From Rhizophagus irregularis (taxonomy: Eukaryota), in contig NC_089434.1 of assembly GCF_026210795.1 (NCBI RefSeq), positions 4,030,001 to 4,094,000 on the forward strand: a stretch of DNA of 64,000 nt. Direction: 5' to 3'. This document shows positions 2,390-19,115 of the stretch, piece after piece (position 1 is the stretch's first letter; every line of letters starts with the position of its first letter). The position numbers were made by a program, and so were the translations under genes. The notes below the pieces were generated by a model. The model ran no database searches. It was not told the origin of the DNA and saw only the letters and a program-made list of their open reading frames with translations.

Positions 2390-3315
2390 TTTATTTCCTA
2401 ATGCTTAATTTTTTTTTCGATACAGAAAATTTTGCGCTTTATTAGAAGAACAACGAGTTCAATATTGAAATTATCTGACGATTATTAAAATTTTAGGCGA
2501 TTTTATAGATATTTTTTTTTTACGCAAGAACGAATTAATAATTGAGTGTCCTCAAGTACTTAAAGCAAAAATTTCTTTTTCTTTTTTAAAAAGATTATTA
2601 TTCTCCTTTTGTTATTAAGCTGCTTAATAAAAATAATTGAAATTTTTTTAAGAATTATCATAAAAGTTCCCTCAAAACTAAAATAATTATCCGCAGTACT
2701 ACGTAGCAATTGTATGACAATATCATGTAGTCAATATTAACTTCCTTAATTACATTATAAATACATTTTTTATTAAAATTTATTTGTTTATTTATTAAAG
2801 TGGCATATGCAAATATACAAATAAATAAATGGCATCAAAAAGTTGTAGCGTAAAATTAAAAAATTTTTTTGTTCCGCAGAAGCACATCACGTGGTTTTTA
2901 ATCTTCTACTCAAAGATATTTAATCCATATACTCTTTTTCTCCATCAATGATTAGTAACTTTTAATTTATTTTTTTACGTAGATTTAACTCAGTGAAATT
3001 TAATTGTATCAGATAATACACACATATATATGTACAGTATTGTTAATTTTTGGGCGCAGTATTATATTAAATTTACTACGGTCCAAATGACATTAAACTA
3101 TTGGTTAAACGGCTTTTCATATTAATTAATTAGGGGACTGCGGAAGATATTAATTATTTATTAAAGTGGTTTATGTAAATATACAAATAAATAAATGATA
3201 TCAAAAAGTTGTAGTGTAAAATTAAAAAAATTTTTTTGTTCCGCATAAGCACATCACGTGGTTTTTAATCTTCTACTCAAAGATATTTAATCCATATATC
3301 TTTTCCTCTATCAAT
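2390..3315. repeat. Dispersed copy of the ~0.9-kb repeat family arrayed at 50960-55200 (left part; resumes at 18819)
   Basis: Shares blocks such as GTTCCGCAGAAGCACATCACGTGGTTTTTAATCTTCTACTCAAAG (2871, 3238) with the 51-55 kb array, including the ~365-bp internal duplication. Confidence 0.9.
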
Positions 3316-3697
3316 AAATACAAAAAAAAACTCTTTCCGATAACTCAAAATTTTCATAATTTGGCGCAGTAAAGTTTTATAACTTCACAACATTTATTTT
3401 TTTCTTTTCCGCTTAAAACCTCACACAAGTGCGGATACGTCTTTTGACGACATCATTCCATATCTTACAGTATATACATATGGTAAAGGTTTCGACCTTT
3501 AAAAGAAATATACGACCTTTTTCGAAGGGTGAAGTTTTTTTTTACACACTTTATAGTTTCAATAAATACACAAGTCACTTATTACAAAGAGTTTATTACT
3601 TTACGATATCTTATATTTTAAATTTTTCAAAATTTTATTATTTTGTGTTTTACATTATTATTACTATTAGATAATATTATTTTTACACTCTTTTATT

Positions 3698-5512
3698 ATG
3701 TCTTTATCAAAACCTTTTCATTTTCCGGTGGGAAAAAATTCTTTCTTGGTCTCTATGAAAAATTTTCACGTGACAAAACCCAAAAGATCTGGTTATAACA
3801 AGATTTATGATAGCCACCGCTCAAAAAGTTTCTTTTTTGAGCTTGCTGATCCTAACAAAAACACCAATGAAATTCATCTGAAGATCCACACTAACGATTA
3901 TACAATGGATACTACCCCAATTAGGTTTCATTCCACAAGTATACTCCCTAATCACAAATACCAAATTAGTAAAATGCTCACACACTTTTTTTCTTTACAA
4001 GAAGTTCTGCCTCGTAGAATACAAACAAAATTTTTTGATTTTATTCGTTCAAAATTATTGGATAGAATTAATATAATACGATCACGTGGTTTTAGCACTA
4101 GCGATCGTAATAGATCTACAAAAACTTTTTTCAATTTTTCTTACAAAAAATATCGCTTTCATTTCGGTATTTATATTCCTTGTATACCTGATTGTACATC
4201 TGACTCTTTATCAGATAAACCTGCTTTTCTTACACAAACTCCAAAAACTCTTCATTTGTGTCAAATTCCATCCCCTTTCATTATGTCGCATCATCGACGT
4301 GCTTGCGTGATGCATCAGAAGAAATTTTTTAGCACAGAAGTGAATCATTTCTTGCGTCCTACTCAGAATTTAAGGAATGAAATGAATAACAACAAAAGTA
4401 CACATGCTTCGAATGTGTTCAACAAATGGCTTTCGCACACAAAAAAAGAAATCTATTCAAATCGGTTAGGAATTAAATATACCACCAGTTATTACGCTAA
4501 CGGTCATCAAAATATTTTTAAGAAAAACAACAAATATCGCTATATGTACAAAAAGCGTTATAATAATTTTAGTCACAATTATAGTATCAATAATTCAACG
4601 AAAAAGAAACAAGAGGCTCGCTTTAAGCGGAATTGTACTCGTATCTACAACAAGAATAACAAATTACGAATACTAAATGATCGACAAAAACTTAGGTCGG
4701 CTGTTCGCCACAGATTTCTCACTTCAATATCGCAATATATAGATAAACCGGTCACCCATCTTCGATATTCAAACAAGAGAAGAAGTATCAAAAAATCAGA
4801 TTATAATTTTAATGTTCCATTTTTTTCTTTTAAAAAGAAAGTACCCCCTATTAGGAGAACAAATCATGTTATCTATGATTTTACTTCTAGTTATAATTAT
4901 GTACCTCGATCTCAGAAATCTTCTAGCCTCTATATTGATGATGTAGCTTCAACGACTACTTTCTGTAAAGATATCATTTATCCTCTTCCTCCTGATATGG
5001 ATCCTGTTCCTGATAATATTGATATTCCAAACGAACTTCGCCCATATATACCTGATGGACCAATATATATGTTGGATCCTTCATCAAACAAAAAGAATAA
5101 GAAAAAAGTTAAACCCCCAACATACACTTATTGCATCCCTGGATCACGTTTGTGGTTTGATTACTTACGAAAGAACATTAAAAACGGTATTTTACCCTTT
5201 CGAGACTTTAGGGTTAACACCTCTAGTCCTATTTCCACCCACCCTATTTCAGATAGTTCGTCACTTAGTGATTCTATTTCACGCAACAACAATAATTTAC
5301 AACAACACAATGACCTTTTAAATTTACAACAACACATTATTGAAAACAATAAACGTCAATGGAACGTCATCAATACACAACTTGATAATGTTATCATTCA
5401 AGATTCTCAAAACACTTCTAATCAACATTCAGTTCACAAAAAACCTAAACGAACTTATTCCAGTTACCTTGCTGACTCCCTGGATGAAGGTTTTACCTCT
5501 GCTCGATATTAA
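3698..5512 (+). CDS. 604-aa basic (K/R/H-rich) protein of unknown function carried by the non-LTR element
   Basis: Intact intronless ORF; no recognisable RT, endonuclease or RdRp motifs; Cys/His cluster near aa 162-206. Confidence 0.75.
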   Translation: MSLSKPFHFPVGKNSFLVSMKNFHVTKPKRSGYNKIYDSHRSKSFFFELADPNKNTNEIHLKIHTNDYTMDTTPIRFHSTSILPNHKYQISKMLTHFFSLQEVLPRRIQTKFFDFIRSKLLDRINIIRSRGFSTSDRNRSTKTFFNFSYKKYRFHFGIYIPCIPDCTSDSLSDKPAFLTQTPKTLHLCQIPSPFIMSHHRRACVMHQKKFFSTEVNHFLRPTQNLRNEMNNNKSTHASNVFNKWLSHTKKEIYSNRLGIKYTTSYYANGHQNIFKKNNKYRYMYKKRYNNFSHNYSINNSTKKKQEARFKRNCTRIYNKNNKLRILNDRQKLRSAVRHRFLTSISQYIDKPVTHLRYSNKRRSIKKSDYNFNVPFFSFKKKVPPIRRTNHVIYDFTSSYNYVPRSQKSSSLYIDDVASTTTFCKDIIYPLPPDMDPVPDNIDIPNELRPYIPDGPIYMLDPSSNKKNKKKVKPPTYTYCIPGSRLWFDYLRKNIKNGILPFRDFRVNTSSPISTHPISDSSSLSDSISRNNNNLQQHNDLLNLQQHIIENNKRQWNVINTQLDNVIIQDSQNTSNQHSVHKKPKRTYSSYLADSLDEGFTSARY

Positions 5513-5825
5513 TTTTTGTAATGAGCCAGGATTATCTACAGAACAACTCAAAATTAGTGTGAACCATTCCACCTCTAACAGTATTTACAGGTGGTGGCTT
5601 TTTTAGCCAAAAGAAAAATACGGATCATGAGAACACAACCTTATTTACTAAATATCAATGCGAATCCTCAATGATCGTTCGCACGTAGTTGCTTTTAATA
5701 GTCTATACTACTCTAGAACTATTGATTTTCTATATATATAATTTTTTTTTTATTTTTAGGTTCTCTCGTTACGGATGGGTCTTTAGGTTTTATTTTTTTC
5801 TTTTCCCCATTCGAAGTATTAGCGT

Positions 5826-6512
5826 TGTCACCCACGTCTGCCACCCGTGGATAAACACATCTTTCTCATTTAACTTATTTCTCGTTACTTTGCTTGGTTT
5901 AGATTTTATTTTTCTTTTAACTTCTCGCTTTCTTTTCTCATATATCCGTAGTATTTATTCTCAATACTACTGCTCATTCATAATATTCCCAAAATATTAT
6001 GCTGCCTGTAATATTTATTCTTTCAAATATTACCATCTTATTTCTTATAAACTGCGAGAGTTCTCCTAACTTCTTATATTTCATACAATAAAACGAGAAT
6101 AACTCCTCTTACTTTACTTTTCTGGACTTAATAATAATATTAATTAATTCTCAAGCGTACAATGAGCATATTCAAGATAACTTTTAATAATTAATATTTA
6201 TTTTATTAAATTTGAGTCAAAACTGACTGCGGAATTCCTAACGAATCCCACCTATATTTATACATTTTTAAGAAAACTATTTCTACCACTTCTAACTTTT
6301 CTACTAATAAAAATTTAAGAACAATAAGAAAATAAAGATATATTATCATATGACTATCTTGTGACTAAACTAAACTAAACTATAAATATTATTTTATCGG
6401 TTAATTATTTATCCTTCGGCTAATTATTTATCCATCGGTTAATTATTTATCCTTGTTCTATTCGGTCTTTTATTCATCTGCTCACGTGATTATCCTGATT
6501 TCTCGGGTTACA
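5826..6512 (-). repeat. 3' LTR (687 bp)
   Basis: TGTCACCC...GGGTTACA; matches 17953-18638 apart from a 1-nt T indel seen by eye; contains 21-bp tandem repeats near 6395-6452. Confidence 0.97.
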
Positions 6513-6523
6513 GCTATCCCCCC
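6513..6523 (-). other. Polypurine tract
   Basis: Minus strand GGGGGGATAGC immediately before the 3' LTR. Confidence 0.7.
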
Positions 6524-6542
6524 AAGAAAAATTTGAGTCCCA

Positions 6543-7730
6543 TCAAATTCTAATTATAACTTCGAAACTTGACCTGTCTATATATTCCTTCAATAATTCT
6601 CCATTTACTGGCGTTTTCTGTATTCTTCCCTCCATAGTTTTAATTTTATAAGATCCTTTAGAAATTATTTCGTGTATATAATACGGTCCTTTCCATTTTT
6701 CTTCTAGTTTTCCAGACCATTGTTTTTCTTTTGCTGCATCATAATATAGTACTTTATCCCCTATTTGAAAGTTCTTTTTCGTCTTATATTTCTTATCATG
6801 ATATTTCTTCTGTTTTTCTTGAGATTTTTCTATATTCTCTCTGGCTCGGCTTCTAATGTTCGGTAGATCTTCCATTAAACTATTAATCCTTTGTGTTATT
6901 GTAACATTTTCATCTTCCATATTTAGTAATGTCCTCATTTCCCTTCCATATATTAGATATCCTGGTTTTAACTTGGTCGAATCATTCTTCTTTGTTCTAT
7001 ATGCAAATAAGACTCCTGGTATTCTTAAATCCCAATCTTTAATGTTACTCAATTTTGCTAATGATTCACATAGTGTCTTATTGAACCTTTCTATTAATCC
7101 ATTCGTCTTCGGGTGATAAGGTGTCGAAAAATTGTGTTTTATCTGAAATTCCCTCATTAATAATTCTACTAATTTGTTATTAAAATGACTTCCCCTATCA
7201 CTTAATATCTTCTTTGGACATCCGTGTCTACATATTATATCTTCATAAATGAATCTTGCAATTTCTTTAGCATCTGCTGTTTCTAAGGCTCTAGCTTCTG
7301 GCCATTTCGTAAAATAATCCATTGCCGTAACTATGTATCTATTATTTCTTTCTGTTATTGGTAACGGTCCCACAACATCTATTCCAATCTGATAAAATGG
7401 TTCTTTAACTTTTATTACATTTAATTCGTGTTTTCCAATCGGTTTTCCTCTTCTTTGACAACTATTGCATGATTTAACATATATTTCTATATCTTGTCTC
7501 ATTCCATTCCAGTAATATTTCTCTCTAATCCTTTCATATGTTGCATCTATTCCAAAATGTCCAGATAATTCATGGTCGTGTGCAATATACATTAATCCTT
7601 CAAACTCATATTTTCTTATTACTCTCAATTCTCTATTATCCTTTATTCTATATAACAAACCATCTTTCATCCTATAGTGTTGTTTATTATCTATATTTTT
7701 AATTATCTCATTATATTTATCTTCTTCCAT
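6543..7730 (-). CDS. Integrase as a stand-alone ORF (HHCC zinc finger, DDE core, GPY/F C-terminal module)
   Basis: HDHELSGH...CNSC; IGIDVVG, ILSDRGSHF, NGLIERFN; KLEEKWKGPY; in-frame TAA two codons upstream of its ATG. Confidence 0.95.
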   Translation of the reverse strand: MEEDKYNEIIKNIDNKQHYRMKDGLLYRIKDNRELRVIRKYEFEGLMYIAHDHELSGHFGIDATYERIREKYYWNGMRQDIEIYVKSCNSCQRRGKPIGKHELNVIKVKEPFYQIGIDVVGPLPITERNNRYIVTAMDYFTKWPEARALETADAKEIARFIYEDIICRHGCPKKILSDRGSHFNNKLVELLMREFQIKHNFSTPYHPKTNGLIERFNKTLCESLAKLSNIKDWDLRIPGVLFAYRTKKNDSTKLKPGYLIYGREMRTLLNMEDENVTITQRINSLMEDLPNIRSRARENIEKSQEKQKKYHDKKYKTKKNFQIGDKVLYYDAAKEKQWSGKLEEKWKGPYYIHEIISKGSYKIKTMEGRIQKTPVNGELLKEYIDRSSFEVIIRI

Positions 7731-7869
7731 TAATTAGTATATCTTCTATTTCTTCTTCAAAAGGTAAAATAAACCTAATATTTTTATCTTCAAATAACAC
7801 GCAGTGATAATTCGTATTCCTGTGTATGATGTAAATATATATTCCTATTCCAATATTTTCAGTAGTCAT
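7717..7869 (-). CDS. Small 50-aa ORF bridging the RT-kinase ORF and integrase (not in the ORF track)
   Basis: MTTENIGIGIYIYIIHRNTNYHCVLFEDKNIRFILPFEEEIEDILINGRR*; starts 2 nt after the RT-kinase stop and overlaps the INT ATG. Confidence 0.5.
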   Translation of the reverse strand: MTTENIGIGIYIYIIHRNTNYHCVLFEDKNIRFILPFEEEIEDILINGRR

Positions 7870-7871
7870 TT

Positions 7872-10193
7872 TTATTTTTCCAATAGCTTTTCTACTCGTT
7901 TATATACTTTTTTCCAACTTTTGTCATCGTTTTTAATTTTAATTCTCCTATATTTTCCTTTATTCTCATAAATATTCTGATGCTCTTTAAACATTTTCAC
8001 CATGTCCATGTATTCCTCTTCGTTCAACGTTTCATATGATGTTTTATGTCCTTCATTACTTTTCTTAGTTTCTCTTCCAATATAATTATTCCAACATTCT
8101 TTATTCTCTAAGAAAATTATTATCGCATTATCTATAATATCTTTATATTTAAATATCTCTTTCTCCATTTTATGATTCCCATATGGAGTAATATATCCTC
8201 TGTCAAAACTTTTGGTCTTTTGATAAAAGTATTCACAATATGGTGACTTATCCAGTATTATAATGTCTTCATCTGTAAATTCAACTATTCTCCTATTGAT
8301 TTCTTCTACAACTTGTTTTCTAAATAACCATTCATATTCTTTTGAAGGTTCCTCAAATCTCTTATCATCATTTCTTCTTCTTTTAAACTTATTAAATATT
8401 ATTTTTAAATCATCCTTTTCTTTTAATCGTTTAATTATATTTTCTACTATGGTGGATTTCCCTACACCATCAACCCCATCAACAATAATAATCTGTGGTT
8501 TACTCTTCCTTCCTAATTTCTTTAATAATTCTTTTTCTGTCTTTTCTTCTAAGTTCAGTAATATTGCTTCTTTATCATTAAAATATTTCATATCATCCCA
8601 TTTTCCCTTAAATCTTCTAGCGTCGAACCATTCATTTCCTGATCTAACATATCTCAGCTTTTTCTCTTTATTATTTTCCATTTTCATTATTTCTTGACTT
8701 AAGTCTCCAGGGTCCCTTTTTATAACTTTCTCTTCAAATTCTAGTCTTGATAACGCATCTGCATTCTTATTTTCTTTACCGCTTCTATGTATTACTTCAA
8801 AGTCATATTGTTGTAACTCCATTACCCATCTTGCTCTTCTTCCTGTAGGTACTTTAGCATTCATTAATCCTTTTAACGCAGCATGATCCGTTATAACCGT
8901 AAATTTTCTTCCTGCTAAGAACTTATGGAAATACTTGATCCCCCAGAATATTGCTAAACATTCTAATTCTGTTATTGCATAATTCTTTTCTGCTCCCACT
9001 AAACTTCTACTAGCATAGGCGATAACAAATTCTTTATTTTCTTCATTTTTCTGAGATAATACTGCTCCTAACCCTTCTCCTGACGCGTCTGTAATCAATA
9101 TAAACTCCTTTTCGAAATTAGGGTGATCTAATACTGGTTTTTCCATTAATCTTATTTTTAATTCTTCAAATGCTTCCTGCTGTTTCTCTGTCCATTCAAA
9201 TGGTACATCCTTTTTAACTAAGTGATATAAAGGTTTTGCTATTTTCGCAAAATTCTTTATAAATCTTCTATAATATGAGCACAATCCTAAAAATGATCTC
9301 ACTTGTGTAACAGTTTCTGGTATCTTTATTTCTTTAATCTTCTCCACTTTCTTTGCATCTGGTTTCAAACTATCTCTTCCAACTATATGTCCTAAAAATT
9401 CTATATTTCGTTCACCGAACTTACATTTCTTCAATTTCACAATCAAGTTGTTTTTCTTTAATTCGTTCAACACTTTATCGATATGTTCCACATGTTCTTC
9501 AAAATTTTTTGAATAAATCATTATATCATCTAGATATACTATTACAAATTCTCCAATATATTCTTTTAATATCTCATCCATTATCCTCTGAAATGTTCCT
9601 GGTGCATTCTTTAAACCAAATGGCATAACATTATATTCATATAATCCTTGTGAACATATAAATGCTGTCTTTTCTTTATCTTCTTCTACCATTTCTACTT
9701 GATGATACCCTGCCGCTAGATCCAAACTCGTAAACCATCTCGCTGTTCTATATTTTTCTAATAATTCGTCTATTCTTGGTAATGGGTATGCATCCGACTT
9801 AGTTATATTATTCAATTTCCTATAATCAATGCAAAATCTATAATTTCCTGTTTTCTTTCCTGCTAGTGTTACTGGAGACGCCCATGGACTCCATGACTTT
9901 CTAATTTTCCCCATTTTTAATAACTGTTCAACTTCTTTCTTTATAAACTTTCCCTTTTCCTCGGTCTCTTTATACCTCTTCTGTGCTATTGGTTCTTGAC
10001 CTTCTTTAATTTCTATTTTATGTCTAACAGTGTCTACCCTTCCTAATTTTTCTCCATCGTATTCAAATATCTCTTCATAACTTTTGATTAGCTTTATTAT
10101 ACCATCCTTTCTTTTACCTGTTACTTCTCCCAAATTTATCTTTTTATCGAACTTTTCCCATTTAGTTTCATTTTTATCATTTTCATTTATCAT
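7872..10193 (-). CDS. Reverse transcriptase - RNase H fused to a C-terminal thymidylate/deoxynucleoside kinase-like P-loop domain
   Basis: RT: SPWASP, RFCIDYR, MPFGLKNAP, YLDD; RNase H: TDAS, ELECL, TDH, NADALSR; then IIIVDGVDGVGKST and IILDKSPYCEYFYQ. Confidence 0.93.
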   Translation of the reverse strand: MINENDKNETKWEKFDKKINLGEVTGKRKDGIIKLIKSYEEIFEYDGEKLGRVDTVRHKIEIKEGQEPIAQKRYKETEEKGKFIKKEVEQLLKMGKIRKSWSPWASPVTLAGKKTGNYRFCIDYRKLNNITKSDAYPLPRIDELLEKYRTARWFTSLDLAAGYHQVEMVEEDKEKTAFICSQGLYEYNVMPFGLKNAPGTFQRIMDEILKEYIGEFVIVYLDDIMIYSKNFEEHVEHIDKVLNELKKNNLIVKLKKCKFGERNIEFLGHIVGRDSLKPDAKKVEKIKEIKIPETVTQVRSFLGLCSYYRRFIKNFAKIAKPLYHLVKKDVPFEWTEKQQEAFEELKIRLMEKPVLDHPNFEKEFILITDASGEGLGAVLSQKNEENKEFVIAYASRSLVGAEKNYAITELECLAIFWGIKYFHKFLAGRKFTVITDHAALKGLMNAKVPTGRRARWVMELQQYDFEVIHRSGKENKNADALSRLEFEEKVIKRDPGDLSQEIMKMENNKEKKLRYVRSGNEWFDARRFKGKWDDMKYFNDKEAILLNLEEKTEKELLKKLGRKSKPQIIIVDGVDGVGKSTIVENIIKRLKEKDDLKIIFNKFKRRRNDDKRFEEPSKEYEWLFRKQVVEEINRRIVEFTDEDIIILDKSPYCEYFYQKTKSFDRGYITPYGNHKMEKEIFKYKDIIDNAIIIFLENKECWNNYIGRETKKSNEGHKTSYETLNEEEYMDMVKMFKEHQNIYENKGKYRRIKIKNDDKSWKKVYKRVEKLLEK

Positions 10194-10277
10194 TTTAAAA
10201 TTTATTTATTATTTTATTTCTTATTATTATTTCAACAATTTTACATTTTGGGACAATTTTAGCCCTTTTTATATAAT

Positions 10278-10913
10278 TCAATCCTCATTTTCACTAGATA
10301 TTTCACTATCATCAGACGAGCTTTCTTCACTGGAACTTTCACTATCTTCTTGAGACTCATTTTCTTTTACTACTTCCTTTTCTTTTATTGCTTCTTTTAC
10401 TGTATATAACTTCTTTCCTTCTTCTTGTTCATAATCAGATTCTCCTGATTCACTTTCATAGTCGGATTCTTCTGACTCTTCCACTTGTTTAATATACCAC
10501 ACTGGTATGTCTATTATTTCTTCATCATTTTCTAATTCCAATATCTTTTCTTTATAGTTGATATTTGCATTCCATTTATCCAATAAATCATTTCCTATAA
10601 TCATTTCTTTTTGCTTTGAATCTATTACATCTAATGTTACTGGTAATACTAATTCTTTATAAACTTTTATTTCTGTATTCACTTTTCCTAATGAAGCAAT
10701 CTTTCCTCCATCTGCTAATGTACACGTAATATTACTTTTTCCTTTTATTGGTATATTTAACTCTTTTCTTAATTTCTCTGTTATTACACTTATTGCTGCC
10801 CCTGAATCTATTACAACTTCGATTTCCTTATCATTTATTATAAACTGTGTTTTCATTGCCGTTGTAACTTCTTTTTCTCCACTTATTTCAGTCTTTTTCA
10901 CCTCCGAGTGTAG
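10278..10913 (-). CDS. Retropepsin aspartic protease, in frame with Gag after a single UGA
   Basis: VVIDSGAAISVI and MIIGNDLL motifs; acidic tail; frame continuous with Gag across TGA-CTA. Confidence 0.9.
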   Translation of the reverse strand, partial: LHSEVKKTEISGEKEVTTAMKTQFIINDKEIEVVIDSGAAISVITEKLRKELNIPIKGKSNITCTLADGGKIASLGKVNTEIKVYKELVLPVTLDVIDSKQKEMIIGNDLLDKWNANINYKEKILELENDEEIIDIPVWYIKQVEESEESDYESESGESDYEQEEGKKLYTVKEAIKEKEVVKENESQEDSESSSEESSSDDSEISSENED

Positions 10914-13900
10914 TCACTCTGTTTTATCTCCTTTTCTTATCATTTTCTTTATCATTCTTCCTTGTTGTTCCACAATATTAAGTAGATTTCCATAATCTAC
11001 TGGATCTTTTGATTTAACTCCTATAATTTTATCTTCTCTTGGTCTACGTTTTCCCCCTGCTTCTTTCCATCTATTTATTCCTTCCATTGTGTCATAATAT
11101 TCTCCTCTCTTTTTACTCCATTTATATCTTTTTGGGATATTCGTATTGTCTGGTCCTATTGGTCTATTATACATTGGTTGCTCATCCTCCACATATTCTT
11201 CCATCGGAACTTCTCTTCTATTTCTATATTTATGTTCTTCTTTCCCTCTTTCCTCAATCTCTTTGTCTAAATTTGGCTTTCCAAAATTTTTCCATCCTTG
11301 TTTAGGATTTATTCTATTACTTCTCCTTCTTTCTTGTACTGGGTTATCTTTTTCATACAAATCACGATTGTAGTTATACAATTGTGGATCATCATATTCA
11401 TTATTTTCATAGTCGTAATCATCATCTGATTCTTCATTTTCGTAGTCATAATCTTCTTCATGGTCTTCTATATCCATTAAATTAACTCTTCTCTCATTTC
11501 TTCTGATATTATTTCCTAATGGACATCTAGTCGCAAAATGACCTCTTCTATTACACCTAAAACAAGTTATTTCATCATAATTAATTGGTGCTCCATTATT
11601 TCTTCTCTGATTCAATTGGTTTCTATTCCCATTATTATTCAACTCCCTTTCCATATTTCGTACTTGTTTTTCCAATTTGGCAATTCTCATTTTCTCTAAT
11701 TTTTCCACTAAATCGTCCTCATAATCTTCCTTTAACGGTTTGTTAAACTTATTTTCTTGTTCATTTCTTTTATCACTGTTTTGTCTAATATCTTGAATAT
11801 TATTATTCTGAATATTATTCTGATTTAACAAACTTTGATTCATCATACTTTGTATCATCATTTGATTTCCTGTCTCTATAATTTTAGCTCTTTCAACAGC
11901 TGCATCCAACGTCGCTGGTGCTGTTTCCATTACTCTTGATATCATAACTGGATTCAGTCCCTGAATAAAATAGTTAATTTTATACATTTCTCCTAAATCA
12001 TTAACTCCTGGTGCTATTTTTCTTATTAACTTTCTGAATCTGCTTGCATATGCTCCTACTTTCTCATTCATTTCTTGTTTAATCGTTTGTAACTCTCTAA
12101 TCCATTGATTCTTTCTAACATCGCTTGCATAATGTTCCTTCAGTATTTTAGTAAAATCATTATTCCCATGGTTATGACCATTGTCCTCCCATCTTTGTAT
12201 ATCTCCTTGTTTGTTTTCATACCAATCAGCTGCTTCTCCTCGCATACATGCTGCTGCTTTTCTTATTTTATCTATTTGATTAGCTCCTTCTTGATAACCA
12301 TTTGCGCTCCAAACAACCTCAAAATCTCTAATCCACTCATATGGATCTTGATCTCCTCCATAATATAATGGTAAATCTCCTACTTTCGCTGCTCTATTCA
12401 CTGGTCCTGTCAAATTTCCAACTCTTGTTTCAACTTGATTAATTCTTCCAAATATTGTATCTGCTGGTGGAACTAAAGCATTCCAATCATTTCCTATATC
12501 ATGTCCTAATATTATATTTCCAAACGTTCTCAAATCTTCTCTGATGTGATTTCTTTCTGCCATATTCAATAATATATTCTCTTGAAATAAATCCTGTAAA
12601 TTATAATCAGATAGTTCACTTTCTGTATCAGAATTTTCAATATCAGAATCCTTAATATTTAACGAATTATTCGAATCTGAATTTTGACTTAAGCCAAAAT
12701 CTTCCGTATTTATAATATTTTCCTCATTGTTTTCAATTCTATTTTCATCAAAGTCTTCAGAATTTTCTTCCCAAATCTCATATTCTTCTGGATCTAATAT
12801 CTCTCCAATCTTTTCCGAATCATCTGAATTATCATTTTCTTCTTCACTTTCTTCAATCTCGAATTTCCTTAAGTACTCATCCAATATTCTCTTTATTTCC
12901 CTTTCTGATTCATTTTTATATTCTTGAAATTTTCTTATAAAGTCTGCACTTAATATATCAACATCTCTATATCCCATACTTATTAATCTTAATAATTCTC
13001 CATCAGAAACTTCAATTTTTAAAACTTTAATTAAGTTCCTTAGCTGTTCTAATCTTTTCTCTATTTCCGTTTCATCATCCGATTTATTCTCGTCTTCTAA
13101 ATTTTCTGGTCCTTTTTCATAACAACTTTTACATATCTTTTCTATAAATTCTTTATTGTATTCTACCGCTTCTATTGCTTCTTTCTTTAATATTATTTTA
13201 TTGCACATTGGGCATTCTATCGTATACATATAATGCCATATTCTTAACTCTTCTTCTATTCTTTCGTCATCTAATTCTTCAATAGTTTTATAAAAACTCA
13301 TAAATTCTTTAGTCTTCATTATTTCATATTCCACTCTGAAATTTATTATTCGCCTTATCTCTTCAGTATCAATTTCATAACCATTTTCTAACCAATAATT
13401 TCTGTATATTCTTTCTATATGTTCATCTCCTTCATTCGAACTTGATTCTCCTAAATCATCTGAATTTTCCAGTTCTCCTACATCACTTTGTTCTTCAACA
13501 AAACCTTTTGCTTCTACAATTTTCTTTATTATCTTATCTGTTATGTCGTCATCTATCCATGGTTTCGGGTATTTATTTCCATCCCACCATTGATATGTTA
13601 TACTTTTCTGAAACTTTCTGACTTTCTCTCTATTCTCTTCTTCTACTATATTTTCTTCTAAATGCAATATTTCCTTGAAATATCTCATTGTGCTATATCC
13701 TTTGTTTTTAATGGTTATTGGTTCTGTTTTTTCTAACCATTCCTCAAATTTTGCAAATCTCATATCTAATTCATCATCTTCTATAATATATCTATATGTT
13801 AACAATTCCCTATTTCCTAATAAATTCTCTTCTGTTTGTTCATCTAATATAAGTTCATTATCTTCATTCAGTATGTAATGTTCACATATTACTTTTATTA

Positions 13901-14297
13901 CTGATATAATTCCTATTTTTCTGTAGTCCGGTTTATTTCTATACCTTATTGATCTTACGACTACATCCAACAGTTTTTCTCCTTCTTTTCTCATTCTCTC
14001 AAATTCTTTATTTCTTTTCTTTTTACTAGATGGATAATTTTCTTCCCCATCCTTTCTTGTTAGTATTATGTATTCCATTAATTTCATATACGTATTTCTG
14101 TTATAACTCATTGCTTCTAATATTACTTTTTGAAAAATTTTCCAAAATCTTTTAAACCAATCTTCTATCTTTATTTCATCAATACCATAACATTTCAGGC
14201 ATGAAGGATCTACTTGATATTCCTTCCTCGATTCATTATGTTTTTCTATTTCATGTTTATTTTTGATCTCTTCTAATTCATCGTATATTTCAGACAT
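10914..14297 (-). CDS. Gag with a ~575-aa acidic, CxxC-containing N-terminal extension
   Basis: Capsid-like LPLYYGGDQDPYEW...MRGEAADW...IKQEMNEKVGAYASRF...FIQGL; zinc knuckle CFRCNRRGHFATRC; N-terminal CLKC, CPMC and CKSC. Confidence 0.92.
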   Translation of the reverse strand: MSEIYDELEEIKNKHEIEKHNESRKEYQVDPSCLKCYGIDEIKIEDWFKRFWKIFQKVILEAMSYNRNTYMKLMEYIILTRKDGEENYPSSKKKRNKEFERMRKEGEKLLDVVVRSIRYRNKPDYRKIGIISVIKVICEHYILNEDNELILDEQTEENLLGNRELLTYRYIIEDDELDMRFAKFEEWLEKTEPITIKNKGYSTMRYFKEILHLEENIVEEENREKVRKFQKSITYQWWDGNKYPKPWIDDDITDKIIKKIVEAKGFVEEQSDVGELENSDDLGESSSNEGDEHIERIYRNYWLENGYEIDTEEIRRIINFRVEYEIMKTKEFMSFYKTIEELDDERIEEELRIWHYMYTIECPMCNKIILKKEAIEAVEYNKEFIEKICKSCYEKGPENLEDENKSDDETEIEKRLEQLRNLIKVLKIEVSDGELLRLISMGYRDVDILSADFIRKFQEYKNESEREIKRILDEYLRKFEIEESEEENDNSDDSEKIGEILDPEEYEIWEENSEDFDENRIENNEENIINTEDFGLSQNSDSNNSLNIKDSDIENSDTESELSDYNLQDLFQENILLNMAERNHIREDLRTFGNIILGHDIGNDWNALVPPADTIFGRINQVETRVGNLTGPVNRAAKVGDLPLYYGGDQDPYEWIRDFEVVWSANGYQEGANQIDKIRKAAACMRGEAADWYENKQGDIQRWEDNGHNHGNNDFTKILKEHYASDVRKNQWIRELQTIKQEMNEKVGAYASRFRKLIRKIAPGVNDLGEMYKINYFIQGLNPVMISRVMETAPATLDAAVERAKIIETGNQMMIQSMMNQSLLNQNNIQNNNIQDIRQNSDKRNEQENKFNKPLKEDYEDDLVEKLEKMRIAKLEKQVRNMERELNNNGNRNQLNQRRNNGAPINYDEITCFRCNRRGHFATRCPLGNNIRRNERRVNLMDIEDHEEDYDYENEESDDDYDYENNEYDDPQLYNYNRDLYEKDNPVQERRRSNRINPKQGWKNFGKPNLDKEIEERGKEEHKYRNRREVPMEEYVEDEQPMYNRPIGPDNTNIPKRYKWSKKRGEYYDTMEGINRWKEAGGKRRPREDKIIGVKSKDPVDYGNLLNIVEQQGRMIKKMIRKGDKTE

Positions 14298-14713
14298 CTT
14301 GATTTATTTTATTTACCTATTTACTTGCAAAATGATTTCATTTCATATTTCCCGTCTATTTATATTTTTATTCATATAGTATTTATTCGTTTATCATTTC
14401 AATCTTTATTTCTTTTATATTTTCATGTTTACAACTTTCTACTACATTTCTTTATTATATTTTATATTACATGGTATTCTATTACTTATAACTTGATATT
14501 CTTCTAACTTCATTAATTCTTAATTAGTTTAACGTCTTTCCGGACAACTATTTGTCCCTAAATTCTTATTATTTACATTTTTCCTGTATTTCCATCTTAA
14601 CCGCTTGATTTCTTCACGCTTATTATTCTTCTTATGATATTCTTTTATTCCACCTGTTATCTTCTAACGTCTTTTTGTATATTTATTTCATCCTTTAATA
14701 TTCATCTTATTCT

Positions 14714-15040
14714 TCAATTCCTATATTCTGTCTGTTCATAAATTTTCTGATTATTCCTGTATGCAGCTATTTTACATTCTCCCATTCGCAATATATTCCT
14801 ATTTTTGTGTTCACATCTTTCTTCATGTTCATTAAGATATTCCATTCTTTTTCGAAAGTATTCTTTACATAACATTTCTATTTTGTTTCTTAAACTTTCT
14901 TCGCTTTCTTCCCTGACTTCAAAATAATTAATTTCTTGTAACGTTACATTCTCTATTTTCTCGCAATATTTACATTTTACTTTACCGTCTATTCTAATAA
15001 AACCTTTTCCATTTATATTTTCAAATACCGTTGTTTCCAT
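14714..15040 (-). CDS. Accessory ORF (108 aa from ATG 15040), putative zinc-binding
   Basis: CKYC...HEERCEH; TATAAAAG 75 nt upstream. Confidence 0.6.
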   Translation of the reverse strand: METTVFENINGKGFIRIDGKVKCKYCEKIENVTLQEINYFEVREESEESLRNKIEMLCKEYFRKRMEYLNEHEERCEHKNRNILRMGECKIAAYRNNQKIYEQTEYRN

Positions 15041-15127
15041 TTCTCGTATTTTATTCAAAATTTCTCATTTATTATTATTTTATTTTGTCATTATTCATTT
15101 CCTCCTACTTTTATAATAATTGATTAC

Positions 15128-15519: not shown

Positions 15520-16425
15520 TCATTCCTCTATTTCTTGTCCTCTTATAAGATCTTCCGCTATTTCTGTTATTTCTTTCTTAGTACAACTATCTACTGATGT
15601 AATATCACAATTACTTTCGAATACTCTTTTCTTTCCTATCTTATTAACTAATAAACAAACTTTTTCTGCTTTTTCCATCATTCTTTTTAATCCTTTTCTT
15701 GTTCTTACTACATCTGTTTCCAACATTTCCTTATATATCTTTTCTCGTTCCTCTTTATCTGTTCTCCTTTTTCTATTTTTCCCTTTTCGCTTATTAATTT
15801 CTTGTTCTAATCTTTCTTCAAACCTTTTTCCTAAATAATAATGTATTTCCAATAACATCTGATTATTCCTTCTCATTTTATGACATAATTGTAATAACGA
15901 TAGTCCTCCATTCTCCTTTTCTAACATTTCTTCGTCAATATCTTCCTTCTTATGTTTTAATCTAATCATTAAAACTTGGTAATTTTCTGATCTAACTATT
16001 TCTTCATTTTCTTCACTATCATCAGTTCCATTTTTCTCACTACTATTATCTTCTTCCTTTTCTCTAACCTTATCATTCTTGTCATCTATTTCCATTAATT
16101 CTGATCTTTCTTCATCAGCTATTCCATCATTATTTATTTCATCTATTACTATATTATCATTATCATTCTCATCATTTTCTATATTAAATTCTGACTCATC
16201 ATTAACATTCCTATTTCCTGAACTATTATCACTTTCTTCTATCATATCTTCATCAAGTTCAATTTTTTCTTCGTTAAATATTCTTTCAGTAACTATCTCG
16301 CATGTGACAATCCAATTCTTTAGTCTCATGTCATTTTCATCATAAAATTCCACTTCAATACAATCATTTAGTTTTTCTTCAACTTTTCTCAATTCTCCTT
16401 TCGATATTTTAATTTTTAATTTCAT
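15520..16425 (-). CDS. Accessory ORF, 301 aa, unknown function (acidic middle, basic helical C-terminus)
   Basis: Intact ORF with the same strand and composition as the other element ORFs; TATATATA ~70 nt upstream. Confidence 0.7.
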   Translation of the reverse strand: MKLKIKISKGELRKVEEKLNDCIEVEFYDENDMRLKNWIVTCEIVTERIFNEEKIELDEDMIEESDNSSGNRNVNDESEFNIENDENDNDNIVIDEINNDGIADEERSELMEIDDKNDKVREKEEDNSSEKNGTDDSEENEEIVRSENYQVLMIRLKHKKEDIDEEMLEKENGGLSLLQLCHKMRRNNQMLLEIHYYLGKRFEERLEQEINKRKGKNRKRRTDKEEREKIYKEMLETDVVRTRKGLKRMMEKAEKVCLLVNKIGKKRVFESNCDITSVDSCTKKEITEIAEDLIRGQEIEE

Positions 16426-17060
16426 GATTTATTATTTCTTATTTATTTATTATTTTATTAGTCAGTCGTCCCTGCCCAGGGGCAACTATATATATACTCT
16501 TAATTTGATATTTTCCTATTATTCTATTGGTTATTCATTCTTATTGTTCCATCAACCGTTCTCAGTATTTCATTAAATTCTTTATTTCTTTTATAATTCT
16601 TTATTTCTCAACTTCAATCTCCTTTTCTCTAATTATTTCTTTCGCTCTTTAATTCCTTTCTACTTTCTTTCTTAACTTTTCTCTTACTGTGCCTTGTACT
16701 ACTCACATGATCTGTATTACTCACGTGACTTGCCGCAGTATAATCTCATTTTATTCACTCACATTTGTAATTGAACTGAAGATCATAAGCCCAATTGTTC
16801 AAACACTTACCATTATACCAACAACATATAGTTGTTACATTTAAACCTTGGATTCATATTTAATTTTTATAACTCCGTTCTTACAACATCAAATATTCAA
16901 CAATACTATTTCTTTTTATTTCATACTTGATACAATTCTTTTATTATACTTCTCATAATCATTAACATCATTCTTTCTTTTATTATAGTTGGATAGCCAC
17001 AGATTTTTAAGCGATCAACTTACTAAAATTTCTGTTGACAAACGCCCCTGGTGACACAAC

Positions 17061-17931: not shown

Positions 17932-17949
17932 CTCGGAAGCATTGCACCA
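17932..17949 (-). other. Primer-binding site
   Basis: TGGTGCAATGCTTCC begins 3 nt after the 5' LTR; complementary to a tRNA 3' end ...GCACCA (tRNA-Gly-like; identity inferred). Confidence 0.7.
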
Positions 17950-17952
17950 AAT

Positions 17953-18638
17953 TGTCACCCACGTCTGCCACCCGTGGATAAACACATCTTTCTCATTTAA
18001 CTTATTTCTCGTTACTTTGCTTGGTTTAGATTTTATTTTTCTTTTAACTTCTCGCTTTCTTTCTCATATATCCGTAGTATTTATTCTCAATACTACTGCT
18101 CATTCATAATATTCCCAAAATATTATGCTGCCTGTAATATTTATTCTTTCAAATATTACCATCTTATTTCTTATAAACTGCGAGAGTTCTCCTAACTTCT
18201 TATATTTCATACAATAAAACGAGAATAACTCCTCTTACTTTACTTTTCTGGACTTAATAATAATATTAATTAATTCTCAAGCGTACAATGAGCATATTCA
18301 AGATAACTTTTAATAATTAATATTTATTTTATTAAATTTGAGTCAAAACTGACTGCGGAATTCCTAACGAATCCCACCTATATTTATACATTTTTAAGAA
18401 AACTATTTCTACCACTTCTAACTTTTCTACTAATAAAAATTTAAGAACAATAAGAAAATAAAGATATATTATCATATGACTATCTTGTGACTAAACTAAA
18501 CTAAACTATAAATATTATTTTATCGGTTAATTATTTATCCTTCGGCTAATTATTTATCCATCGGTTAATTATTTATCCTTGTTCTATTCGGTCTTTTATT
18601 CATCTGCTCACGTGATTATCCTGATTTCTCGGGTTACA
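17953..18638 (-). repeat. 5' LTR (686 bp)
   Basis: Near-identical to 5826-6512; minus-strand TATAAATA near 18388 and downstream AATAAA. Confidence 0.97.
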
Positions 18639-18818
18639 GCGTAGTTCTAGTAGTTTGAATAGTATTGTTCGAAGGGTGGGGTCCCGTAGGGGATTAATTT
18701 CCAAAATTCTATACTAGCCTATTTGTACCATCATGTAAATGATGTTTTACTCTTATTTTGTAATAGTTTTGGGAGTACTACTCTTTTAGTAATAAAATAA
18801 AATAAATAAAATAAATAA

Positions 18819-19115
18819 ATCTTTTCCTCTATCAATGATTAATAACTTTTAATTTATTTTTTTACGTAGATTTAACTTAGTGAAATTTAATTGTATCAGA
18901 TAATACACACATATATATGTACAGTATTGTTAATTTTTGGGCGCAGTATTTTATTAAATTTACTGCGGTCTGAAATGACCTTAAATTATTGGTTAAACGG
19001 CTTTTCATATTGATTAATTAGGGGACTGCGGTCAGGAATGACGTTAAACTATAATTTCTACTTTAATGGTTATTTTACTTTATCTTTTTTATTGGTATAT
19101 TATTTTATTTAGGAT
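18819..19115. repeat. Continuation of the interrupted ~0.9-kb repeat copy
   Basis: CTTTTCCTCTATCAATGATTAATAAC...GGGGACTGCGGTCAGGAATGACG matches the 51-55 kb array. Confidence 0.9.

Follow-up and report, generated by a model that had tools for sequence, protein, structure and literature searches.

What is a nucleotide kinase doing in the pol region of a retrotransposon? The question is raised by a 64,000-nucleotide stretch of the Rhizophagus irregularis genome (hereafter the window; NCBI RefSeq assembly GCF_026210795.1, contig NC_089434.1, positions 4,030,001 to 4,094,000), whose minus strand carries a Ty3/Gypsy retrotransposon of 12,813 bp bounded by long terminal repeats (LTRs). One of its open reading frames (ORFs), at window positions 7872-10205, is a single stop-free frame of 777 amino acids (aa; first ATG at 10193) that encodes reverse transcriptase (RT) and RNase H and then, past the NADALSR that ends RNase H at 8745, runs on for exactly 290 aa up to a TAA at 7874-7872. 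This C-terminal extension holds IIIVDGVDGVGKST (P-loop at 8477-8451) and IILDKSPYCEYFYQ (D652-Q662 at 8252-8220), the two motifs on which an earlier, sequence-only reading of the locus had based a thymidylate/deoxynucleoside-kinase-like domain in a frame open for about 290 aa past NADALSR. The kinase lies where that reading put it, and the limits given for it can be refined: an end at 8700 omits 44 nt of linker, and the kinase proper is a domain of 212 aa, aa 566-777 (8510-7875, or 7872-8510 with its stop codon), rather than about aa 565-773. The 78-aa linker that separates it from RNase H (8511-8744) is predicted to consist of a tether of about 25 residues, modeled with low confidence, followed by a confidently modeled beta-hairpin/helix subdomain of about 50 residues (approximately aa 515-564). 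This subdomain forms the N-terminus of stand-alone kinase ORFs and is missing in one subfamily; in fold searches with linker and kinase together, the result lists were filled by the kinase.

The predicted structure of the domain (AlphaFold, aa 566-777, pLDDT of 90) has a thymidylate/deoxynucleoside-kinase fold. In an alignment against 48,161 PDB chains (VIA-align), the top row is the thymidylate kinase (TMK) of S. aureus (4dwj; Z score of 15.8, rmsd of 3.2, 180 residues aligned), and human dGK (2ocp; Z score of 15.7, rmsd of 3.1, 194 aligned) and Giardia dAK (8puu; Z score of 15.5, rmsd of 3.2, 195 aligned) score closely; Foldseek lists from PDB and BFVD are likewise made up mostly of TMKs and deoxynucleoside kinases (dNKs). 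Profile searches agree with the predicted fold on this identity. The best profile is phrog_761, labeled thymidylate kinase (E value of 1.5e-11, residues 2-209 on profile positions 16-214 of 362), which matches all 40 aligned family members; Pfam Thymidylate_kin matches 35 of 39 members at an E value of ≤0.05, and neither dNK nor PPK2 is among the best 25 of 70 Pfam families for these 39 members. Neighbors in the ESM Atlas are phage TMK-like clusters at 0.95-0.96. FtsY/SRP GTPases head the PDB single-sequence and profile searches but cover only the P-loop, and they were rejected because the full fold agrees with TMK/dNK; the Pfam NB-ARC, AAA, and NACHT matches, which also cover the P-loop alone, were rejected likewise. 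The whole domain thus matches TMK/dNK and not a P-loop protein of a non-nucleotide kind, the outcome that the sequence-only reading had named as fatal to its proposal. With the phrog_761 E value, the pLDDT of 90, and more than 100 homologues, the kinase domain is not a chance match.

Conserved residues were counted across 117 homologues (37 long proteins from a region search and 80 shorter ones from a domain search), using only the sequences that cover each site. Fungal host thymidylate kinases are type I. Among nucleoside monophosphate kinases, the P-loop Asp is unique to thymidylate kinases, with Asp-Arg marking type I (human) and Asp-Gly marking type II (bacterial) (PMC3169407, in its accessible part). 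The window P-loop, GVDGVGKST (8451-8477), shows the type II pattern of Asp and then Gly, unlike the Asp-Arg of the human enzyme; across the family, D579 is present in 89/92 sequences, G580 in 88/92, and K583 in 92/94. The second motif, DKSPYCEYFYQ (8220-8252), can be aligned in full register with DRYYFSSVVYQ from a TMK of bacterial type (hhalign probability of 96.8) and also with the Aquifex enzyme, its YQ falling on the TMK YQ, which corresponds to the TMK motif DRx..S...YQ with Lys for Arg. The P-loop, DRX, and LID motifs are named as such in the accessible text of PMC8679000. By the order of secondary structures, R711, which lies in the helix just ahead of the LID position, is the putative counterpart of the basic LID residue. 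Together with F628 (100/101), R629 (100/101), E658 (98/101), Y661 (100/100), and R711 (98/98), these putative active-site residues are nearly invariant across the family.

The family itself extends well beyond the window. Named homologues come from Rhizophagus irregularis, R. clarus, R. diaphanus, and Glomus cerebriforme (one of them 97% identical across half of the query), and in a metagenome scan 23 of 155 pattern matches were confirmed, at 54-88% identity. RT/RNase H lies upstream of the kinase at 11 of these 23 loci, integrase downstream at 16, both at 6, and either at 21, the other two being contigs of 1.1-1.2 kb; the order is always RNase H, kinase, integrase. The kinase therefore marks a whole Glomeraceae retrotransposon family and, as the sequence-only reading had asked of sister elements, is kept across its loci. 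Of the 11 loci with RNase H, five have an in-frame fusion of the kinase, two of them without the linker, and six encode it as a separate ORF; fusion to RT is accordingly not essential. Contigs of four runs contain many related copies over the kinase, including the linker-less join, and none of the 15 joints listed from these runs skips the entire kinase, although contigs cannot show absence.

Selection on the kinase was estimated from the ratio of nonsynonymous to synonymous divergence (dN/dS, NG86), with medians over pairs with dS between 0.1 and 1.2. Relative to the window copy, dN/dS is 0.06-0.25 in 22 of 23 loci, the remaining one being saturated. The median for the kinase is 0.24 (120/274 pairs), compared with 0.32 for integrase (62/96), 0.21 for RNase H (21/36), and 0.23 for RT (3/10); the pairs are nonindependent, and synonymous sites are near saturation. 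These values indicate that the kinase is under purifying selection like that on integrase. Kinase and integrase distances are correlated (Spearman coefficient of 0.73, reached in 1 of 5,000 permutations) across the 14 sequences that cover both genes well enough, where mean distances are 0.37 and 0.39, respectively; support in each tree was low, at just 3 starred branches out of 11, and we used the distance correlation alone. The base composition of the kinase is like that of the rest of the element, which fits long residence. Conservation in sister elements, purifying selection, and divergence in step with integrase all argue that the kinase is maintained cargo. The sequence-only reading had called it functional cargo on the strength of near-identical LTRs and an intact frame; that it is maintained stands up, but through family-wide selection rather than through the young LTRs of a single copy. 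None of the refuting conditions in that reading that can be judged from sequence spoke against it.

For its function, the proposal that we put first, while regarding the chances as evenly balanced, is an ATP-dependent deoxynucleoside monophosphate (dNMP) kinase, most likely acting on dTMP, that raises the supply of deoxynucleoside triphosphates (dNTPs) for copying of the element. The kinase would phosphorylate dNMPs with ATP, dTMP foremost, and host NDP kinase would complete the conversion of dTDP to dTTP, so that the dNTP supply, above all of dTTP, would rise for reverse transcription. The sense strand of the element is 45.7% A, and minus-strand synthesis would thus draw mostly on dTTP. When host pools run low, the element would benefit by making more cDNA or by incorporating less uracil into it. 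In half of the family the kinase is a protein of its own; it would therefore feed the pool in the cytoplasm, and direct channeling of nucleotides to the element's own RT would not be expected. The sequence-only reading had proposed such a supply of dNTP precursors, and its interpretation is supported in part: the kinase fold and the maintenance of the domain bear it out, with activity, substrate, and role in dNTP supply as putative features.

Several observations weigh against this proposal. dTMP kinase is usually not rate-limiting for dTTP synthesis, and, to our knowledge, most Ty3/Gypsy elements do without such a kinase. The predicted fold is a tie of TMK and dNK, with Z scores within 1 of each other, and the curated cut-offs for thymidylate kinases are not reached, either in Pfam PF02223 (22.8 bits versus 27) or in TIGR00041 (20.7 bits versus 83.25). 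Where TMKs have R/K-E-P, after strand 2, there is a K-R-R-R run (K608-R611, 8373-8384) from which E-P is absent, and the residue four past the conserved Phe, which in TMKs is a thymine-binding Arg, is Val in 96 of 101 sequences; of the dTMP-binding set, by the roles that these residues generally have, Phe and YQ are kept, and an invariant Arg stands at Phe+1. The DRx Arg is replaced by Lys (K653) in all 101 covering sequences, a substitution that the sequence-only reading had noticed in the window copy. In the accessible part of PMC12995831, this Arg is described as essential for catalysis, its replacement explains an inactive paralogue, and proteins annotated as TMKs can turn out to be polyphosphate kinases. 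In yeast, according to the accessible part of PMC3002893, raised dNTP pools brought no rise in Ty1 cDNA and hydroxyurea stimulated Ty1 mobility at the permissive temperature; dNTPs are there reported to be limiting for recombination-mediated Ty1 mobility. Judged by its motifs, the domain resembles a TMK-superfamily kinase but appears to fail strict membership of EC 2.7.4.9, and we regard it as a putative new branch of that superfamily, the DK-motif branch.

As for the origin of the gene, an exhaustive phmmer search of 1.84 billion representatives yielded 51 matches, which beyond the family itself are DK-motif proteins at 31-41% identity, several with an N-terminal NUDIX domain, followed by a tier of ordinary TMKs at E values of about 1e-4 to 1e-3. 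The closest distant kin are the NUDIX-kinase fusions. Fusions of NUDIX to a DK-motif kinase occur in P0129, P0158, P0132, P0169, P0179, and P0180, all on short metagenome contigs (10.8 kb for P0158 and 16.2 kb for P0169); one NUDIX-kinase cluster has 71 members, and the Atlas look-alikes are bacterial NUDIX/kinase clusters. One cluster member is tagged as a Gammaproteobacteria metagenome-assembled genome and is probably a mis-binned fungal contig (3.9 kb). The last 43 residues of the linker give an ungapped profile-profile alignment to the NUDIX C-terminal tail (probability of 55.6%, with 0 of 100 shuffles as high), while a linker hidden Markov model scored above shuffles in just one of six relatives (P0138, which has no NUDIX match) and was negative in the other five; the linker subdomain may be what is left of a NUDIX C-terminus, for which the alignment is suggestive only.

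Searches for a closer source returned little. With the family alignment, 0 of 108 pattern matches were confirmed in viral contigs; in prokaryote genomes, 0 of 7 were confirmed. Two NUDIX-kinases as queries found no match in viral contigs, and phage records gave only weak partial matches; over the viral and phage searches, the best identity was 24-26% across part of the domain. A wider alignment recovered at least eight weak loci in viral contigs. In the three whose neighbors were scanned, the kinase is phrog_761 and adjoins thymidylate synthase and/or dCMP deaminase, and two of the three are also near a DNA polymerase. The family profile, on the other hand, scores three cellular-type TMKs, preselected as phmmer matches, at 39-44 bits and eight phage kinases at 20-30 bits, which counts against an exclusive phage link. 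The sequences point to a donor of prokaryote or phage type, not of host type, and a NUDIX-kinase lineage of prokaryotes or phages is a more likely source of the gene than a host gene. The sequence-only reading had listed viral, bacterial, and host donors; of these the host is the less probable, and no close viral or prokaryotic homologue turned up in the searches above.

The alternative that survives best, though we consider it unlikely, is that the domain is a nucleotide kinase driven by polyphosphate and convergent with PPK3/PPK2, in which a basic acceptor-side cleft would bind polyphosphate and (deoxy)nucleoside di- or monophosphates would be converted, without ATP, to triphosphates for use in reverse transcription. 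Mycorrhizal fungi store polyphosphate in bulk. In 44 selected full-length rows, a basic residue stands at K608 in 43, at R609 in 39, at R610 in 40, at R611 in 43, at R629 in all 44, and at R638 and R639 in 39 each, and the K608-R611 cluster is thus conserved. The structure of S. tokodaii ST1543, which from its locus number we take to be the cPPK3 homologue STK_15430, aligns with a Z score of 13.5 and PPK2 with 12.3, and one ESM Atlas cluster carries both PPK2 and TMK labels. TMKs and dNKs nevertheless score 2-3 Z higher, the family retains the Phe, Tyr, and Gln of the TMK nucleotide pocket, the window protein has no match to Pfam PPK2 at an E value of ≤1, and the whole protein is Lys-rich, which makes basic runs cheap. 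According to the accessible part of PMC12995831, PPK3 arose within the TMK superfamily when the residues that bind dTMP gave way to a positively charged cleft, and PPK2/3 likewise require the DRx Arg. The window kinase would share with PPK3 the predicted TMK fold and a putatively altered, basic acceptor side but differs in its retained pocket aromatics, its lower Z score, and the Lys at the DRx position.

Distinctly unlikely, in our estimate, is a pool-editing or counter-defense enzyme. Its substrate would be a nucleotide that is modified or damaged (dUMP, or methylated or oxidized dNMPs), which it would exclude from the cDNA or bring into it, or it would offset nucleotide depletion by the host. 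The fusion of its nearest distant relatives to NUDIX hydrolases, base-binding residues unlike those of canonical TMKs, a weak UDG-like C-terminus in one phage relative (E value of 0.011), and the methylation of transposable elements (TEs) by the host (PMC8647823, accessible part) would suit such a role. The retroelement version, with no Pfam NUDIX match, is nevertheless without the NUDIX catalytic part.

Two further readings we consider quite improbable, and equally so. The first is a deoxynucleoside salvage kinase, through which the element would obtain dNMPs from nucleosides. dNKs use a general-base Glu after strand 2 and share an E/D-R-S-x-Y-S-D motif. In fold searches dGK, dAK, and Drosophila dNK tie with TMK or follow it closely; the D-K-S-x-Y-S-E spacing, with E658 in the family, resembles the dNK motif, and NUDIX-fused P0129 matches Pfam dNK over 1-182 of 203 (E value of 2.4e-4). 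No Glu is conserved at positions 600-616 in the 44 rows, however, the P-loop Asp is TMK-like, several basic residues fit a phosphorylated acceptor, and dNK is missing from the best-ranking Pfam families mentioned above. The window kinase therefore shares with the dNKs (2ocp, 8puu, and Dm-dNK, 1ot3) the predicted fold and the acidic residue six after the motif D but lacks their general-base Glu and has a P-loop Asp of TMK type. The second is that the domain is no small-molecule kinase at all but binds nucleotides in an accessory role, or phosphorylates nucleic acid ends, and works with RT/RNase H or integrase through its basic surface. The Arg-to-Lys change in the catalytic motif, at the Arg that is also replaced in an inactive regulatory paralogue (PMC12995831, accessible part), is compatible with this, as are the basic cluster, the fixed place between RNase H and integrase, and the tRNA kinases and KTI12 lower in the fold list (Z scores of 10.2-10.5). 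It sits poorly with the near invariance of the P-loop Lys and Asp, the LID Arg, and the pocket residues; the Lys does not drift and recurs in the NUDIX-fused relatives, and in 6 of 11 loci the kinase is a free ORF. Least probable by far, and largely refuted, is a neutral passenger, captured once and carried without benefit: broken copies exist (L014 with three stops, L016 with one, and truncated proteins), but dN/dS is well below 1 even in the closest pairs (L015/L016, dN of 0.012 and dS of 0.110), and the kinase is retained over 54-88% identity with near-saturated synonymous sites.

Considering origin and function jointly, we lean slightly toward an account in which a prokaryotic or phage NUDIX-kinase was captured, shed its hydrolase, and would now serve as a dNTP-making kinase, possibly driven by polyphosphate, in what would be the first such retroelement and a new DK-motif family.

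The element around the kinase is a young Ty3/Gypsy retrotransposon, judged by LTRs that are identical at 689 of 690 positions and differ by a single 1-nt indel. All of its features are on the minus strand. The 5' LTR (17953-18638, 686 bp) and 3' LTR (5826-6512, 687 bp) have TG..CA ends, and a 4-bp target-site duplication, GCGT, lies on either side (18639-18642 and 5822-5825). A primer-binding-site-like sequence beginning with TGG (17932-17949) lies 3 nt inside the 5' LTR, and a G-rich polypurine tract, GGGGGGATAG (6515-6524), adjoins the 3' LTR. Upstream of gag are two extra ORFs, an acidic one of 302 aa without a Pfam family (15520-16428) and one of 116 aa without a significant Pfam family (14714-15064). 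A Pfam search recovers Ty3 capsid, CCHC knuckle, aspartyl protease, RT, RNase H, and integrase in the Gypsy order, namely, Gag followed by protease, RT, RNase H, and integrase, with the kinase inserted between the last two. The Gag ORF (10914-14303; capsid and CCHC knuckle) has an N-terminal extension of about 670 aa and ends in a TGA, directly after which the protease follows in the gag frame (10278-10913). In the ORF at 7872-10205, the RT core occupies aa 117-275 (9381-9857; RVT_1, E value of 6.5e-43) and RNase H occupies aa 338-487 (8745-9194; RT_RNaseH, E value of 2.7e-37). A 50-aa spacer ORF (7717-7869) begins 2 nt past the kinase stop and overlaps the ATG of the integrase ORF (6543-7733; H2C2 zinc finger and rve core), which has its own start at 7730. 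The frame that the sequence-only reading had called intact is so for RT-RNase H-kinase, which is stop-free, but not for pol as a whole: Gag-protease, RT-RNase H-kinase, and integrase are separate ORFs, and because relatives have the same layout, it is the architecture of the family and not decay.

The junctions between these ORFs have features of their own. TGA-CTA is a known leaky-stop context. Gag and protease share a frame interrupted only by the TGA (10914-10916), which is followed by CTA CAC TCG G; the same TGA-CTA context recurs in L012 (372-374), whose RT is only 68% identical, and this suggests conserved readthrough, by which the protease would be made. In 10 of 16 loci, the integrase ATG is -11 to +3 nt from the kinase stop; a spacer of 135-433 nt separates them in the remaining 6 loci and in the window. 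The separately started protease, RT-RNase H-kinase, and integrase ORFs look like a termination-reinitiation arrangement, unusual for Ty3/Gypsy. One locus has an F-box ORF between kinase and integrase (L015:667-1083; Pfam F-box, E value of 2e-5), and small coiled-coil ORFs lie next to the kinase in L004, L013, and L007.

Three presumed RNA runs gave just short, low-depth pieces within the element. On the plus strand, an ORF of 613 aa without a Pfam family (3671-6319) ends 300 bp before the 3' LTR, and contigs of two presumed RNA runs extend from this ORF to within the LTR (two pieces covering 3822-6289 in one run and a single piece covering 3822-6319 in the other), so that the insertion may supply the 3' end of this gene. 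A repeat of about 210 bp (95-96% identity) flanks the element at 2933-3143 and 18820-19031, 15.9 kb apart, and is probably a small repeat in its own right. Neither a tandem array of a 39-bp repeat (50-456) nor a BAG-domain ORF (1178-1972) is related to the element.

Accessory nucleotide enzymes are a known feature of retroelements, but the kinase class, with a motif set of its own, is apparently new among them. The nearest parallel is formed by the dUTPase-bearing LTR elements and retroviruses (fungal and rotifer Ty3/Gypsy elements and planarian Burro; PMC6431247, accessible part), which likewise carry a nucleotide-metabolism enzyme in pol with a presumed thymidine-side role. Theirs is a pyrophosphatase between protease and RT, whereas here a P-loop kinase, fused or free-standing, stands between RNase H and integrase. 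Ty3/Gypsy elements of orchids with an AlkB m6A demethylase ORF (PMC9289625, accessible part) represent another lineage-specific enzyme capture that was retained, but AlkB is a host-like RNA enzyme in a separate ORF and has been biochemically tested, in contrast to a predicted, prokaryote-type kinase in the pol region. Type II thymidylate kinases of EC 2.7.4.9 (4dwj and 2pbr) share with the window kinase the predicted fold, the Asp-Gly P-loop, the D-x-x-x-x-S-x-x-x-YQ register, and the putative LID Arg; the window kinase departs from them in its DK for DR, its lack of R/K-E-P, its Val at Phe+4, and an identity of 14%. With the phage family PHROG 761 (YorR-like, DRxxxSExxY) it shares the S-E-x-x-Y ending, the label of that family being an annotation rather than a tested activity and no close phage homologue having been found. 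We found no publication on a nucleotide kinase in an LTR retroelement, in line with the sequence-only reading, in a search that left out supplements, TE libraries, Repbase, GyDB, and subscription journals; the accessible parts of arbuscular mycorrhizal fungus TE papers, a fungal LTR survey, a giant-transposon review, and the orchid AlkB paper do not mention one. Automatic annotations already label some members thymidylate kinase, with the retroelement context unremarked.

Until now, the nucleotide-metabolism enzyme known from retroelements has been dUTPase, and nucleotide kinases have been typical of large DNA viruses and phages; the present family suggests that a eukaryotic transposon acquired a gene from prokaryotes or phages. 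The kinase offers a direct handle on dNTP-pool restriction of LTR elements, still in doubt for cDNA synthesis after the yeast study of Ty1. That selection on the kinase appears as strong as that on integrase suggests that nucleotide supply may limit retrotransposition in these multinucleate, long-dormant symbiotic fungi.

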